IMG/VR virus record: IMGVR_UViG_3300013212_000072
Coordinates: 1-64,000 of that record
Strand: one strand, 5' to 3'
DNA from: a virus
Length of the DNA: 64,000 nucleotides
Below the pieces are notes generated by a model. The model searched no databases and was not told where the DNA came from. It saw only the letters and a list, made by a program, of their open reading frames with translations. Positions 21,792 to 29,064 of the stretch are shown piece after piece. Position numbers and translations under genes: made by a program. The number at the start of each line of letters is the position of its first letter. Position 1 is the stretch's first letter.

Positions 21792-22038
21792 CATTGAAGA
21801 AAGCCCGGAAGAATCAAGAAAATTTATAAAAAAACTACACGAAGCATCCAAAGAAGATATGATGGATGTTATGTACTCTTCTATTGTCAATGGTAAAATG
21901 GGAGCATTAAAGCACGATGGAACCATTGAAGAAAAAATAGAAGGAGTAAAAACGGTTCTTAATTTCTTTAAAGATAAAGAAGATTATGAAAAATGTAAAG
22001 AACTCAAAAAAATAATCGAAAAGTTGTCAATAATATAA
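21784..22038 (+). CDS. UVR-motif small protein 3
   Basis: C-terminal FKDKEDYEKCKELKKII. Confidence 0.7.
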   Translation: MSSIEESPEESRKFIKKLHEASKEDMMDVMYSSIVNGKMGALKHDGTIEEKIEGVKTVLNFFKDKEDYEKCKELKKIIEKLSII

Positions 22039-22132
22039 TATAGTAACCTTTTTAGCCCGGTTATATTAAAAGTGCTTAGCTAAAAATATATATTATATGT
22101 GGCTATAGCCACTTTAAAAACATTAAGGCAAG

Positions 22133-22390
22133 ATGGGAGATATTACAGGGGAGGAAAGAGATTCTCTGATGAGGTCCAGCTACTATATACTTACTAGAAA
22201 TTTTACTAAAACCATTAATAGATTTGTTGTTTATAATGATGGTAATCACACAATCGATATTCCACATGGAATCGGACAGCGAAGCAAATTCGTAGATGTC
22301 CTAATAGAATATTTCGTTGAGTTAGAGGAATATGAAAAATGCGATTCGCTCAAGAAATTAAAAGAACTAGTCATAATGACTGGTGATTAA
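22133..22390 (+). CDS. UVR-motif small protein 4
   Basis: C-terminal YFVELEEYEKCDSLKKL. Confidence 0.7.
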   Translation: MGDITGEERDSLMRSSYYILTRNFTKTINRFVVYNDGNHTIDIPHGIGQRSKFVDVLIEYFVELEEYEKCDSLKKLKELVIMTGD

Positions 22391-22406
22391 ATATATACAA
22401 ATTTGT

Positions 22407-23156
22407 ATGCAAAAAAGAACAGTGGAAAGTAAATCAAAAACAACTAAAGCAAAACCCACAACTACTAAAAATCCAATTGGACGTCCTAAAAAAACAGTAG
22501 TAAAAGAATTAGATTTAGTAGGAGTACAATTAAAGCCGTCTCAATATGATTATTTTGAAAAAATTAAAAAAAATGAAATAACATTCTGTTCTGGTCCTGC
22601 TGGAACTTCAAAAACATTTACGGCATGTTATACTTCCCTATGGTTGCTAGCAACAAAAGGAGTTTCAAAAATTATTTTATGTAAACCAATTCAAGAATCC
22701 GGAGAAAAACTTGGATTCCTACCTGGAGATATTGCAGACAAGGTTGACCCTTACATGCAATCATATATTTCAAATTTTAAAAAAATAGTAGGTGATGAAT
22801 TAACCGAAGGTTTAATTGCTTCAGGTGCTATTGAATTTAAGCCACTTGCATTTATGAGGGGTGATACATTTGATGATGCGTTTATGATTCTAGATGAAGC
22901 GCAAAATGCTCCATGGAATGCTCTTATACTATTTATTACTAGAATGGGTAAAAATTCTAAAGTACTAGTATCTGGAGATATAAGTCAGTATGATATTGCA
23001 AAAGATAAGGTAACATTTCATAAATTCATAGAAATGTATAAACCAGTACATGGTGTTGGAGTTCATGAGTTTGGGATTAAAGACATTGTGCGTGCAAAAA
23101 TATTACAAGAAATTGTAAGCATTTATGATAAATGGAAATCCGATAATAATCTTTAA
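22407..23156 (+). CDS. phoH: PhoH-family ATPase with a replacement C-terminus
   Basis: GPAGTSKT, LGFLPGD, FMRG.TF, ILDEAQN and GDISQYD. The ATG at 22407 is preferred over the GTG at 22383. Confidence 0.92.
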   Translation: MQKRTVESKSKTTKAKPTTTKNPIGRPKKTVVKELDLVGVQLKPSQYDYFEKIKKNEITFCSGPAGTSKTFTACYTSLWLLATKGVSKIILCKPIQESGEKLGFLPGDIADKVDPYMQSYISNFKKIVGDELTEGLIASGAIEFKPLAFMRGDTFDDAFMILDEAQNAPWNALILFITRMGKNSKVLVSGDISQYDIAKDKVTFHKFIEMYKPVHGVGVHEFGIKDIVRAKILQEIVSIYDKWKSDNNL

Positions 23157-23278
23157 TACATAAATAAAGTTGCGTATGAGATGTTGATTTTGTAGTTATT
23201 TTCATGAAATTTTCATATGCAACTTTTTTATAATTTTTTGGTGATATATAATCTAACTACAAATATATTATCAACATC

Positions 23279-24073
23279 ATGAAAAACTACAAATATTATT
23301 ATGTTTATAGAATAACTAATACTTTACATAATAAACATTACTACGGCTACAGATCTTCTAATACCTCACCTTTATTAGATATTGGTATTAAATATTTTTC
23401 TTCGAGCAGAGATAAAGATTTTATAAAAGACCAAATTGAAAATCCAAATAATTATAAATATGTTGTTGTTAGGGTTTTCGAAAATAGGGAAGATGCACAT
23501 AATTTAGAAATAGAACTGCATGCAAAATTCAATGTAGGTATTAATCCATCATTTTATAATAGAGCAAAAGCAACTAGTTCTAGATTTTCAATAACTGGAA
23601 CTTCTCTATCAGATGAAACCAAAAAAAGAATGTCAATATCACATAAAGGCAGGATTGTTTCTCAAGAAACTAGAGATAAAATATCGAATGCTAACAAAGG
23701 AAAAAAGCATACGGATAAATTTAAAGATAAAATTAGAAATCGAGCGCAAGGAAATTCATATCATAAAAATAAAAAGCATACTGAAGATTCAAAGGTTAAG
23801 ATGAGCAATTCACTTAAAGGAAAGAAAGCATGGAATAAAGGTATAAAGACTCCGGATGAAGTTAAAGCAAAACAATCATTAGCTAAATTAAATATGACTC
23901 AAGAGCAAAAAGATAAAATGCATTCTTGGAAAAAAGGTCGACCATTATCTGAAGAAACTAAGAAAAAATTATCAAAACCTCAAACAAAGGTAGAATGTCT
24001 ATATTGTAATAAAATTGGAGGTATTTCTGCAATGAAACAATATCATTTCGATAATTGCAAACAAAAAATATGA
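23279..24073 (+). mobile_element. Free-standing GIY-YIG homing endonuclease with NUMOD3 repeats
   Basis: YVYRITN...YYGY, YFSSS, repeated ETK.KMS/H.E..K.K.S units and C-terminal C..C...HFDNCK. Confidence 0.85.
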
Positions 24074-24239
24074 TATACCAAAAGCAAGTGCAGGTCTTCC
24101 AGGATTCATGCAGCTAATGAAGGGAATTAAAGGAACAGGAGAACATGTTTTTGAGAATAAAGATATTGTAAGAGCTAAAATACTTCAAGATGTTGTAGAC
24201 AGATACGACAAATGGAGAGTTGAAAATCCTGAAAAATAA
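24069..24239 (+). pseudogene. Stranded original 3' end of phoH
   Basis: Reads YDIPKASAGLPGFMQLMKGIKGTGEHVFENKDIVRAKILQDVVDRYDKWRVENPEK*, collinear with the PhoH C-terminus. Confidence 0.85.
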
Positions 24240-24284
24240 GAAACTATCTGGAATCCATCTATATAATACGTATAAAACATATAG

Positions 24285-24917
24285 ATGGAAACCAGACAAA
24301 TACTACTTAAGCACTCCTACACAGGAGATGAATCAATTATAGAAATTGGTGTTGATGAGGCTGGCCGAGGTTCACTAAGTGGACCTGTTACGGTAGCCGC
24401 ATGTATAATGCCATTTGGATTTGAAAACCCCCTGATCAAAGATTCAAAACTATTAAATGAGCAACAGCGAAAAGAGGCTCGTCGAATTATCGAGGAAAAC
24501 GCTATTGCATATCACATTGAACATATATCTCCCGAAGATATTGAGGCAACTAATATCTTAAAAGCAACCTTAATTGGAATGCAACGATGTTTAGAAGGTG
24601 TAAAGAATAATGCATTATTTGACTTTATATTAGTTGATGGCGACCAATTCCACGGATTTGAAGGAATTCCTTTTGAAACAGTAGTTGGAGGAGACAATAA
24701 ATATATTTCAATTGCTGCTGCAAGTATTCTAGCCAAAACCGAACGGGATTCAGTTATGAAAGATTTGGATATTGAGATTCCCGGATATGGCTGGAATTCA
24801 AATAAAGGGTATGGCACCGCGGCACATTTAATTGCAATTAAAGAATTAGGCCCAAGTAAGTATCATAGAATGAGTTTTATATCGCATTTGTTAACATCAA
24901 CTAATTCTTTATTTTAA
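24285..24917 (+). CDS. rnhB: Ribonuclease HII
   Basis: GVDEAGRG, DSKLL, VDG, SIAAASILAK, NKGYGT and HRMSF. Confidence 0.95.
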   Translation: METRQILLKHSYTGDESIIEIGVDEAGRGSLSGPVTVAACIMPFGFENPLIKDSKLLNEQQRKEARRIIEENAIAYHIEHISPEDIEATNILKATLIGMQRCLEGVKNNALFDFILVDGDQFHGFEGIPFETVVGGDNKYISIAAASILAKTERDSVMKDLDIEIPGYGWNSNKGYGTAAHLIAIKELGPSKYHRMSFISHLLTSTNSLF

Positions 24918-25047
24918 AATATTTTTAAAGGGTCTCTACTTATACATATATTTTGTTTGTCGTTATTCTAAAATAGTTTGTCTAGAGGCCCTTTTTTCTT
25001 ATGATGTGAGATATATAATATAACGACAAACAAAAATATTATATTAA

Positions 25048-25690
25048 ATGTACATCTACAAGACAACAAACAACAAACAACATCAACAACAAAATTTATA
25101 TTGGACTATCTACTAGATTAGTAGAAGAGTCGAAAGATTACTTTGGTTCCGGATTAAAATTAAATAAAGCTATTCAAAAATATGGCAAAGAAAATTTTAC
25201 TAAAGAAATAATAGAAAGTGGTATAGCAAATAAAGAGTTATTAAATGCTCGAGAAGTGTATTGGATATCCTATTACAATTCGACTGATAAATATGTTGGA
25301 TATAATATTTCAAATGGAGGTACTGGAGGAGATATGATAACTAATAATCCTAATAAAAATAAAATTTTAGAAAAAATATCTATTGCGGTAAAAAAATCAT
25401 GGAATGATGACCGTAAAGAACATTATAAAAAATTATGGGAAGGTTCTAACAATCCTAATTATGGTAAAGAATTCTCAGAGGAACACAGAAAAAAGATTAG
25501 AGAAGGTGGGATTGGAAATACTAATGCAGCAGTACCTTGCTCAAACGAAAAGAAAAATAAGATTAGTAAAAAATTAAAAGGAATTAAACAGATTGTGGTT
25601 GAATGTCCACATTGTAAGTTAACCGGAGGAAACCCTATAATGAGAAGATACCATTTTGATAATTGCAAGCAAATAAAAAATAAAAAATGA
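25048..25690 (+). pseudogene. GIY-YIG homing endonuclease frameshifted by a 7-nt tandem duplication
   Basis: MYIYKTTN, then an extra ACAACAA unit (25063-25082), then INNKIYIG...YFGSG...GYNIS.GG.GG in the frame of the 25256-25690 ORF. Confidence 0.8.
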
Positions 25691-27260: not shown

Positions 27261-28169
27261 ATGGGAGCTAACTACGGATATTGTTGTATAAATCTAACTC
27301 TAGACAAGAGTGGTATTAAAATCGGGCGTTCAATGATTAAAAAGACCTTTGACGCAAAAGGTATCAAATACGCTGGAGAACTTGCCGAGGCAAATATCCG
27401 TGACATGATAGAAATTATTAAATGGAATCATAAAAACGGTGTTACATTATATCGTATGTCCTCTAGTATGTTTCCATGGATGTCAGAATACGAGCTTACT
27501 GATTTGCCAAATTGGTCAACAATTTCAAATCTACTAAAGGGTGCTGGCACACTAGTGCAAAAATACGGACAGCGTGTTGGTTTTCATCCTGGACAGTTTT
27601 GTGTACTTCCAAGTCCAAATCAAAAAACCGTAGACAATTCTATTAAAGAACTCGACCAACATGCATTTATTCTTGATACTATGGGTCTACCGGTTAATCA
27701 ACAATACTCTATGAATATTCATGTTGGTGGTTCTTACGGAGATAAAGAAGCTGCAATCCTAAGATTCATTGAAAACTTTAAATTGTTATCTCCTTCTGCA
27801 CAGTCTCGTTTAATCCTTGAAAACGACGATAAACCTGCGCAATATTCGGTAAGCGACCTTTACCGAATCTATCAAGCGGTTGGTACGCCTATCACCTTTG
27901 ATTACCATCACCATCGATGTTACAATGACCCGATGTCCGAACAAGATGCTCTTCTTTTGGCAGCTCGTACTTGGCCTAAAGGTATTCGCCAATTGTGTCA
28001 CTACTCAAGCGCTAAAAAATTACACGAGGATGCTTCTGTTATTATAAGAGCACATGCTGATTATTTGTATGAATTTATTGATACTTACGGTATGGAAATA
28101 GACATTGAACTTGAAGTAAAAATGAAAGAGCTAGCTTTATTAAAATATTTTAAAGATTACTTACATTAA
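27261..28169 (+). CDS. uvsE: UV-damage endonuclease UvsE/UVDE with a replacement C-terminus
   Basis: GYCC, YRMSS, HPGQF, NIHVGG, LENDD, FDYHHH, HYS, HAD and E.K.KE. Confidence 0.92.
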   Translation: MGANYGYCCINLTLDKSGIKIGRSMIKKTFDAKGIKYAGELAEANIRDMIEIIKWNHKNGVTLYRMSSSMFPWMSEYELTDLPNWSTISNLLKGAGTLVQKYGQRVGFHPGQFCVLPSPNQKTVDNSIKELDQHAFILDTMGLPVNQQYSMNIHVGGSYGDKEAAILRFIENFKLLSPSAQSRLILENDDKPAQYSVSDLYRIYQAVGTPITFDYHHHRCYNDPMSEQDALLLAARTWPKGIRQLCHYSSAKKLHEDASVIIRAHADYLYEFIDTYGMEIDIELEVKMKELALLKYFKDYLH

Positions 28170-28231
28170 AATCAATAAATTTCAATAAGTAAGGTAAGGC
28201 AAAAGATATATAAAGTAAAGTAAAATAAACT

Positions 28232-29002
28232 ATGTATACTAGAAACTGTCCTACGTGCAATAAAGAAATTTCATATTCAAATAAAGGTAATGCAGATAGA
28301 GCTATAAATGGTAAAAAGGTTTGTAAATCATGCTCGGTTAAACTTAGAAATAATGACAAAACATATTTAAACAAAATATCTGAATCTAGAAAAAAATACT
28401 TTAAAGAATTGTCTGAAGAAGATAAAGAAATTTGGAAGTCTAATAACTCAAAAGCTCAAAAGAAAGCATGGGAGAATAAAAGTGATGAAGACAGAGAAAA
28501 ATATGCAAAAAATGTAAGTGAACAATCAAAAGAAAGATGGAGTGACCCTGATTATACAGAAAGAGTTTCAACATCTATGAAAGAAAACCCATGGCCTAAA
28601 AATAAAACTCCTGAAGAAATTATTGAAATAAATAAAAGAACAACCACTACTAAATATGAAAAGTACGGAACATTATTTCCAGGAGGAGGAAACAAACAAA
28701 AGAAAACTATAATAAAAGGATTGATATGTGAAAGTTCATTTGAGTTAAAATATATTGAATCTTTAATTTCTAAAAATATAGAGTTGCCAAAAAATGCAAA
28801 ACGTATTGAAACTCCATTTGGATATTATACTCCAGATTTTGAATATGAAGACAGATTTATAGAAATAAAGTGTGAGTTTACCTATAAGGTTTTAATTGGA
28901 GAATCTTCATTTAGTAAAAGTGGAAATTATAATCCAAAGCAATTAAATAAAATAAAGTGGGTTAGTGAAAATATTAAAAATGTAGAAATAATAGTTCTTT
29001 AG
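28232..29002 (+). mobile_element. Putative free-standing homing endonuclease (Zn ribbon, NUMOD-like helices, PD-(D/E)XK domain)
   Basis: CPTC...CKSC, basic repeats, and C-terminal SSFE...YTPDF...IEIK. Confidence 0.7.
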
Positions 29003-29064
29003 CAAAATCAAAAGAATTGGCTCTTCAAAAATACCAAAAAGAATATATACTCTGTGAAAAATAA
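29002..29064 (+). pseudogene. Stranded original 3' end of uvsE
   Basis: AKSKELALQKYQKEYILCEK* versus the current end VKMKELALLKYFKDYLH*. Confidence 0.75.

Follow-up and report, generated by a model that had tools for sequence, protein, structure and literature searches.

The stretch of DNA analysed here (the window) comprises the initial 64 kb of IMGVR_UViG_3300013212_000072, an IMG/VR virus record of 81 kb from an uncultured lake phage, and it carries a free-standing homing endonuclease gene of the predicted GIY-YIG/NUMOD3 type directly behind phoH. We think it very probable that this gene arrived as part of a cassette which entered the phoH-rnhB junction from a donor phage by double-strand-break repair, leaving phoH chimeric and its native 3' end displaced downstream. 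The phoH gene is chimeric, a near-isogenic empty site exists, the two alleles coexist in nature, and independent sister insertions have a different right joint. Read along the plus strand, the order is a chimeric full-length phoH, the endonuclease gene, the displaced native 3' fragment of phoH (hereafter the orphan), a 45-nucleotide (nt) spacer and rnhB (Table 1). The record is linear and estimated to be 28% complete; the window is AT-rich, with a G+C content of 33%, and its relatives stem from lake and freshwater metagenomes.

A chimeric phoH and its displaced native end

The phoH open reading frame (ORF) is complete as it stands. It ends at its own stop codon (23154-23156), its product gives a full-length match to the Pfam PhoH model (PF02562; 7.1e-60, model positions 7-205 of 205), and a 122-nt leader separates it from the endonuclease start. 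Behind the endonuclease gene lies the orphan frame, free of stops from 24069 to 24236, closed by a stop at 24237-24239, and contiguous with the native intergenic region and rnhB; the TGA stop of the endonuclease (24071-24073) sits within the orphan's TATGAT. On its own, the orphan matches positions 156-205 of the PhoH model. The first-pass annotation, which worked from the letters of the window only, had noticed that this frame aligns without gaps to the current end of PhoH, and it does so with 26 of 53 amino acids identical (E 7e-18). It had also proposed that the current end and the endonuclease are foreign and that the orphan is the native end, a view borne out by comparison with relatives and by the trees.

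A scan of IMG/VR with PhoH returned 38 loci, each of which was compared to six query pieces. Among them, 18 close relatives (L001-L007, L009-L017 and L038; 90-96% identical in the N-terminal part) are without the endonuclease. In these relatives rnhB starts 45 nt after phoH, and the PhoH end is 92-100% identical to the orphan at the amino acid level, against 47-51% to the current end; it reads ...YDIPKASAG..., as had been predicted for relatives lacking the endonuclease. The nearest relative, L013, belongs to this endonuclease-free group. Upstream of the insertion, window and L013 are identical at 756 of 765 nt (22133-22897). The agreement is 69 of 90 nt over 22898-22988 and 103 of 157 nt for the current phoH end, against 169 of 171 nt between the orphan and the in-gene 3' end of L013, and beyond the orphan it is 553 of 561 nt (24240-24800). 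There is no counterpart in L013 to the cassette leader or the endonuclease. Because the flanks and the orphan are ~99% identical while leader and endonuclease are without a match, we take L013 to represent the empty site.

Trees of the 5' and 3' parts of phoH disagree. In the tree of the N-terminal part (N-part) the window is identical to L013, within a clade of 100/100 support; in the tree of the C-terminal part (C-part) the window's in-use end groups with L022, L040 and L042 (100/98 support), and the orphan groups with L013, L001 and L007. At the nucleotide level, the foreign 3' part is 66-77% identical to L013 and 73-80% identical to L022, L040 and L042. Two loci, L022 and L024, carry the current-type end and no endonuclease, their tails running colinear into the native spacer; both are distant relatives, ~78% identical to the window in the N-part. 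Judging from these comparisons, the current-type end is native to a sister clade (L022, L024 and P0013-P0020), which is the likely source. The expectation that no endonuclease-free relative would carry the current end holds for the close relatives, then, and fails for L022 and L024 only, which are distant and resemble the source lineage.

Across PhoH as a whole, the last 82 codons form two deeply split allele classes (~50% amino acid identity), and the first 170 codons are 75-100% identical; the 3' part of phoH seems to evolve much faster than the 5' part. A blastn search in distant mode of 21800-25000 against GenBank phages gave short weak matches and no relative.

Position and nature of the joints

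The first-pass annotation had placed the left edge of the insertion at 22989, where TATGATAT occurs, and had read its recurrence at 24069 as junction evidence. The motif is indeed present at both positions. However, the window contains it 13 times, where 7.6 occurrences would be expected, and at these two positions it represents the homologous Tyr-Asp-Ile codons of both gene ends; we therefore rejected it as a junction signature or target duplication. Nor does 22989 mark the left edge. Identity to L013 runs at 29-30 of 30 nt per 30-nt block up to the LDEAQNA codons and collapses already at 22911, ~78 nt further upstream, where the window reads PWNALILFITRMG, resembling the current-type clade (QWHALILFITRMG), and L013 reads SFKQLMLFTTRMG.

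On the right, native sequence resumes with the orphan at 24067 (AATATGATAT...). The foreign tract covers ~22911-24066 (1156 nt) for a net gain of 1080 nt: the ~76 native nt that correspond to 22911-22986 were replaced and not duplicated, and duplication is limited to 24067 onward. An element of roughly 1.08 kb had been envisaged as dropping in at one point. Its length survives as the net gain, but the discrete drop gives way to what looks like a homologous crossover on the left and a separate joint on the right. Once in place the cassette is unlikely to be lost by homologous deletion, because the two gene ends are identical at 102 of 168 nt and share no run longer than 8 nt.

An endonuclease ORF that interrupts coding sequence, with homologous stretches to its left and right, might also suggest a group I intron or an intein whose removal by splicing restores the native end. 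We consider this very improbable. The annotation's statement that phoH is complete without splicing agrees with its own stop codon and its span of the whole Pfam model, and in L022, which has no endonuclease, a PhoH with the same kind of end is encoded in full. A scan of 22300-24400 against Rfam, at E up to 1, found no intron, returning chance matches to miRNA models at 24239-24304 (minus strand) that coincide with the hairpin at the rnhB start described below. Furthermore, a splice of 22989-24068 would not restore the native protein, because the 76 nt upstream of 22989 are foreign too, and the endonuclease is not an in-frame intein, because it has its own start and leader.

Filled and empty alleles in natural populations

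Logan contigs of four runs from four studies (X1, X2, X3 and X5) were mapped onto 22300-24700; beyond those four, runs with shares below 0.4 were not used as habitat evidence. In X1, a lake metagenome, a 1659-nt contig of depth 61 joins 22986 directly to 24067, omitting exactly 1080 nt, and has native-type letters at 22911-22921. The same run holds endonuclease-bearing contigs of depth ~4 with one mismatch in 491 nt. Filled and empty alleles thus coexist in one lake. The right joint, between endonuclease and orphan, is bridged by contigs in X3 (24029-24167) and X5 (23875-24122) with 4-7 mismatches, and position 22911 is bridged by contigs in X2, X3 and X5.

With both alleles present in the same lake sample, the window might be thought an assembly chimera of two co-occurring strains. 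Against this, both joints are bridged in Logan contigs that come independently from two other studies, and the identical sequence which the empty-site L013 and the window share at the right joint is ~13 nt long, too little for a k-mer-based chimera. As contigs of two other studies bridge the endonuclease/orphan joint, the layout is not an assembly artefact. A tandem duplication in situ that later diverged is likewise excluded, because the current end clusters with a different clade from L013, to which the orphan is 99% identical; we attach next to no credence to either account.

The chimeric allele was also recovered by a protein search with PhoH residues 177-257, which returned P0001, the same allele, on four ENA contigs. 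Its start is the ATG equivalent to window 22407. Compared with the window, P0001 differs at 2 of 81 residues in the C-part (98% identical) and by ~5% in the N-part; further current-type PhoH proteins are 81% identical. Neither exact nor degenerate searches found the endonuclease/orphan joint in other IMG/VR records.

Sister cassettes with a different right joint

Endonuclease homologues 60-78% identical to that of the window lie between phoH and rnhB in L040, L042, L039, L065 and L041, each with a current-type PhoH end (L040 is on the same contig as L023, and L042 on the same contig as L008; L064 is a metagenome-collection locus similar to L040). The endonuclease, absent from the 18 close relatives, is present in at least five lineages; in the window, ~246 nt of co-converted flank are of the donor type. 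In the sister cassettes the endonuclease ORF runs into 7-8 captured codons of the host lineage's own PhoH tail, giving ORF tails that include …CKWRIDNPEK and …CKLVDNPEK, each followed by the stop. In L040 and L065 the ORF closes with …FDRCKWRIDNPEK and a stop, the PhoH tail that the endonuclease-free L025 has; in L042 it closes with …CKLVDNPEK, the tail of its endonuclease-free sister L018; and in L041 with …CKWKDKHNL and a stop. These cassettes join native sequence at Lys-Trp codons (AAATGG), and the window's joint lies 50 codons earlier. In the N-part tree L042 goes with L018 and L040 with L025, and therefore at least three backbones carry a chimeric phoH. From the joints, the phoH site appears to have been entered at least twice, each time in a different way.

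Two further loci should be mentioned. In L065 (1683-2182) phoH matches in two frames that meet at 1889, through a frameshift or a sequencing error. At L094:1341-2920, on the contig that also holds L056, a GIY-YIG gene lies directly behind a remote PhoH (37% identical) and has the Cys/His motif of the window's endonuclease at its C-terminus. The 3' side of phoH may be a recurrent landing site.

The endonuclease and its leader

The endonuclease matches PHROG 314, 'homing endonuclease' (2.5e-31), and Pfam NUMOD3 in three stretches (1.1e-16). Invariant in 14 homologues are Y8 and Y10 (YVY 8-10), Y21-Y22-G23, R25, E77 and N94, with a residue spacing that we take to be close to that of I-TevI, and a C-terminal C-x2-C...H-x3-C motif, resembling a zinc finger, is kept in the homologues examined. 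For an AlphaFold model of residues 1-135 (pLDDT 70), the top fold match is the catalytic domain of I-TevI (1mk0/1ln0; prob 0.98-0.99, E 0.011-0.029), further matches being a GIY-YIG restriction enzyme and the N-domain of UvrC. A sequence search of the PDB gave a weak match of the NUMOD3 region to the DNA-binding domain of I-TevI (1i3j) and nothing else. On motifs and modelled fold we accept the protein as a putative GIY-YIG enzyme, with caveats that are taken up below.

The hairpin that follows the phoH stop folds at -28.5 kcal/mol (z -3.3), and none of 200 shuffles was equally stable. Within the 5' leader of the endonuclease, 23255-23263 is complementary to the loop of this hairpin (23189-23197). 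The hairpin keeps its position in L040, L042 and L065, and GATATATAAT is conserved in the same three; GATATATAAT is also found upstream of the second cassette of the window (25010) and, as GATATATAA, upstream of a nuclease-like ORF beside uvdE (28205), both described below. The leaders of the two cassettes (23160-23278 and 24927-25047) follow one plan in different letters, namely hairpin, T-run, GATATATAAT, and before the start a loop-complementary stretch, of 9 nt in cassette 1 and 16 nt in cassette 2. By analogy, this plan looks like the translational control of T4 homing endonucleases, in which a late promoter lies within a structure of the RNA that hides the start of translation (PMC2988022).

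A consensus scan of the cassette for sigma-70 promoters and terminators gave nothing above shuffles; the hairpin came from folding. A resemblance of the cassette promoter region to the presumed target, in the manner of the I-TevI operator, was seen by eye only and judged to be chance in AT-rich DNA. As to the neighbouring gene, the rnhB start codon lies in the 3' arm of a hairpin, CCATCTATAT...ATATAGATGG (24255-24288), which encloses a TATAAT.

Table 1. Coordinates of the phoH locus and of related features in the window
Feature	Position	Strand	Details and basis
phoH ORF	22383/22407-23156	+	Likely start, ATG at 22407; the longest ORF begins with GTG at 22383
Native 5' part of phoH	22407-22910	+	Near-identity to L013; N-part tree; Pfam PhoH
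Foreign 3' part of phoH, now the end of the gene	22911-23156	+	82 codons, APWNALILFITRMG...DKWKSDNNL and stop
Cassette hairpin and T-run after the phoH stop	23160-23231	+	Folding
Promoter-like motif of the cassette, GATATATAAT	23243-23252	+	Recurrence in cassettes; putative function
Predicted free-standing GIY-YIG/NUMOD3 homing endonuclease gene	23279-24073	+	264 amino acids; PHROG 314, NUMOD3, conserved residues, fold
Orphan, the displaced native 3' end of phoH	24067-24239	+	56 codons and stop, no start codon of its own; L013 identity
rnhB (RNase HII), native neighbour 3' of phoH	24285-24917	+	Pfam RNase_HII, 1.2e-35; last ~115 nt replaced too
Second cassette, same family	24918-25690	+	Hairpin leader, GATATATAAT, frameshifted GIY-YIG gene
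uvdE parallel case	27261-29064	+	Foreign-tailed uvdE, nuclease ORF, orphan native tail

Other recombined patches in the window

Relative to L013, the window holds three recombined patches within 7 kb. At the second, the GIY-YIG gene of the second cassette starts at 25048 and has its ORF at 25256-25690, with matches to NUMOD3 and PHROG 314/655; reading in three frames places the frameshift in an A/C-rich run between the GIY motif (MYIYKTTNN) and the YIG motif (KIYIGLS). L013 lacks this cassette, and there the rnhB stop overlaps the start of the next gene. In the window, 24801-24917 of rnhB is identical to L013 at 84 of 115 nt (73%), between flanks of 99%, and the next gene (25687-) is 84% identical in amino acids. 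The second cassette is a case of two-sided co-conversion, with no orphan.

The third patch is at uvdE. The uvdE gene (27261-28169; Pfam UvdE, 8e-60) has a foreign tail and is followed by a nuclease-like ORF (28232-29002, 256 amino acids) with a weak RE_endonuc match, which is absent from all relatives. Behind it, at 29002-29064, lies the stranded native tail of uvdE, 20 codons long and identical to that of L013 at 62 of 63 nt; within this orphan tail are the promoter-like motif GAATATATA and the GTG at which the next small ORF starts. In the order of its parts, uvdE has the same layout as phoH, and the genome holds two such cases.

A third intact GIY-YIG gene of the family (237 amino acids) lies at G000 74194-74907 (L106:2695-3408), upstream of a gp32-like ORF, and the 290-nt spacer that follows it yielded no orphan gene end.

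The arrangement at uvdE bears on the question of whether the phoH orphan might be retained for a function, such as a 43-amino-acid product from the ATG at 24108 or a signal for rnhB, instead of being a relic or a homology arm. Its frame is open and 98-100% identical to functional ends, and the uvdE orphan contains a promoter-like motif and a start codon. An intact frame is expected anyway at ~1% divergence, however, and the hairpin and promoter of rnhB come only after the orphan's stop. Moreover, the sister cassettes keep no more than 7-8 tail codons with rnhB still directly downstream, and for this reason a function of the orphan is not needed. We regard a retained function as unlikely.

A proposed route of entry

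We propose that the cassette comprised a foreign, presumably cleavage-resistant phoH 3' end, the hairpin/promoter leader and the endonuclease gene. The enzyme would cut phoH of the orphan type at a point within the interval that corresponds to 22911 to ~22990. The left end would then be resected to the last well-conserved stretch (…GATGAAGCGCAAAATGC) and invade the donor, by homologous recombination within phoH, a short way upstream of 22911, in sequence that is nearly identical between the allele classes, and synthesis would copy the donor's gene end, leader and endonuclease. On the right side, the copied tract would be joined to native phoH at 24066/24067 without long homology, the founding joint probably being made by illegitimate (microhomology) repair, and the native last 56 codons would thereby be displaced downstream, not replaced. 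One-sided illegitimate double-strand-break repair of this kind, at microhomology, has been described for T4 intron homing (reviewed in PMC2988022). The outcome would be a complete chimeric phoH with no need for splicing, an endonuclease gene equipped with expression signals of its own, and a native gene end that is dead. As the orphan would provide homology to the right of the cut, later homing could be two-sided, as in the model for yeast WHO elements discussed below. That the current-type allele resists cutting is suggested by how strictly the current-type end goes with the cassette; L022 and L024 have that end and no cassette. The first-pass annotation presumed that the element had destroyed its own target site, and here too this is a presumption.

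Several points weigh against this reading. Both cleavage and resistance are steps that we infer. The Pfam GIY-YIG models stay below threshold on the N-domain (SegE_GIY-YIG, E 0.076), and assignment of the enzyme depends on the motifs, the PHROG match and weak fold matches (E 0.011-0.029, pLDDT 70). The best match to the cassette is 75-79% identical in nucleotides, its donor is unsampled, and any microhomology at the right joint is unreadable. Finally, the same joint occurs in diverged backgrounds, and two-sided homing of a ready-made cassette with its orphan may apply.

If that last point is followed through, the founding joint formed in an earlier phage and the cassette was inherited ready-made by two-sided homing, the donor orphan pairing with the recipient 3' end; only the place of the founding event would differ from the course proposed above. 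Such homing is part of the WHO model (PMC7282813), and the same right joint is present in contigs of two other studies that are 2-5% diverged from the window. P0001, far closer to the window in its C-part than in its N-part, points the same way, and the shared joint in these contigs, together with P0001, favours some horizontal spread. On the other side, the joint is seen in no other IMG/VR record, and the orphan is as close to L013 as are the flanks, which fits either scenario. We rate a ready-made cassette as a serious possibility, a little short of an even chance. On either course of events, entry of the cassette from a donor phage by double-strand-break repair is the explanation that we prefer.

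Relation to known systems and significance

The first-pass annotation had presented this arrangement as a new way of invading a coding sequence, a claim we do not uphold, since both yeast WHO elements (PMC7282813) and fungal mORF hybrids (PMC3630166) share the layout. In the WHO elements at yeast FBA1 (Coughlan et al. 2020, eLife; PMC7282813), an endonuclease lies between a resistant chimeric gene and the displaced old 3' fragment. Like phoH, these loci combine 99% identity upstream of the switch with low identity downstream, have discordant 5' and 3' trees and involve no splicing, and the 3' part of FBA1 is reported to evolve fast. The displaced fragment has been proposed to serve as the downstream homology arm (PMC7282813), a role that the phoH orphan would share. 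The WHO proteins, however, are intein-like LAGLIDADG/zinc-finger nucleases of a eukaryotic nuclear genome that act in meiosis, whereas phoH has a GIY-YIG/NUMOD3 gene in a phage with its own hairpin/promoter leader. WHO elements further differ in a tandem cluster of older fragments, none being seen at phoH, and in that cleavage and allele specificity at phoH are putative.

In mORF gene hybrids, found in atp6 of Allomyces macrogynus and in atp6, atp9, cox2 and nad3 of Glomus (PMC3630166 and its reference 48), an in-phase foreign C-terminus is followed by an endonuclease ORF and then by the native C-terminus, as at phoH. Nucleotide identity to relatives is 91-98% for the native against 64-81% for the inserted end in these hybrids (PMC3630166), and 99% against 66% at phoH. 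The mORFs belong to organelle genomes and several are in phase with the host gene, whereas the phoH endonuclease is a separate cistron; and phoH, unlike the mORF hybrids, offers an exact empty site and both alleles in one natural population.

Among phages, a close parallel is intronless homing of the T4 Seg type (PMC2988022), which shares with phoH a free-standing GIY-YIG gene beside its presumed target, a co-converted flank, variable presence and a leader with a promoter inside an RNA structure able to mask the translation start. The T4 cases covered there lie between genes, and that review reports no stranded duplicate of a gene end, whereas the right joint at phoH falls inside coding sequence and leaves a 56-codon orphan. 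In ICP1 phages (PMC10448857), as in the window, homing nuclease genes sit at the borders of recombined patches; a search of that paper by word turned up neither duplicated nor orphaned gene ends. In the literature searched, whose coverage left out most subscription journals, we found no published phage case of a stranded or duplicated gene end at a homing endonuclease.

Our conclusion is that phoH provides a well-supported natural case of homing by 3'-end replacement in a phage, a known kind of element in a new setting. More tentatively, and with slightly less than even confidence, we suggest that gene-end replacement is a general, so far undescribed route by which free-standing homing endonucleases enter phage coding regions, the cassette acting as a unit of three parts: a resistant gene end, a nuclease, and the displaced native end as right homology arm. 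If so, the cut site would adjoin the insertion site as it does for an intron, without any need for splicing machinery, and phage genes such as phoH and uvdE would be driven to evolve rapidly and discordantly at their 3' ends.

Nature offers a before-and-after comparison at this locus, with 99% identical flanks, both alleles in one lake and sister insertions that use another joint, and L013-type and chimeric phoH offer a pair of substrates for allele-specific cleavage by an uncharacterised, putative GIY-YIG enzyme. The gene phoH is a common marker for aquatic phage diversity. A homing element that swaps the last third of phoH between lineages makes phoH trees chimeric; in the window, the N-part is identical to one clade and the C-part belongs to another. 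Taken together, the paired sites, the coexisting alleles and the sister insertions show that phage homing endonucleases, like yeast WHO elements and mitochondrial mORFs, can invade coding sequence with neither an intron nor an intein.

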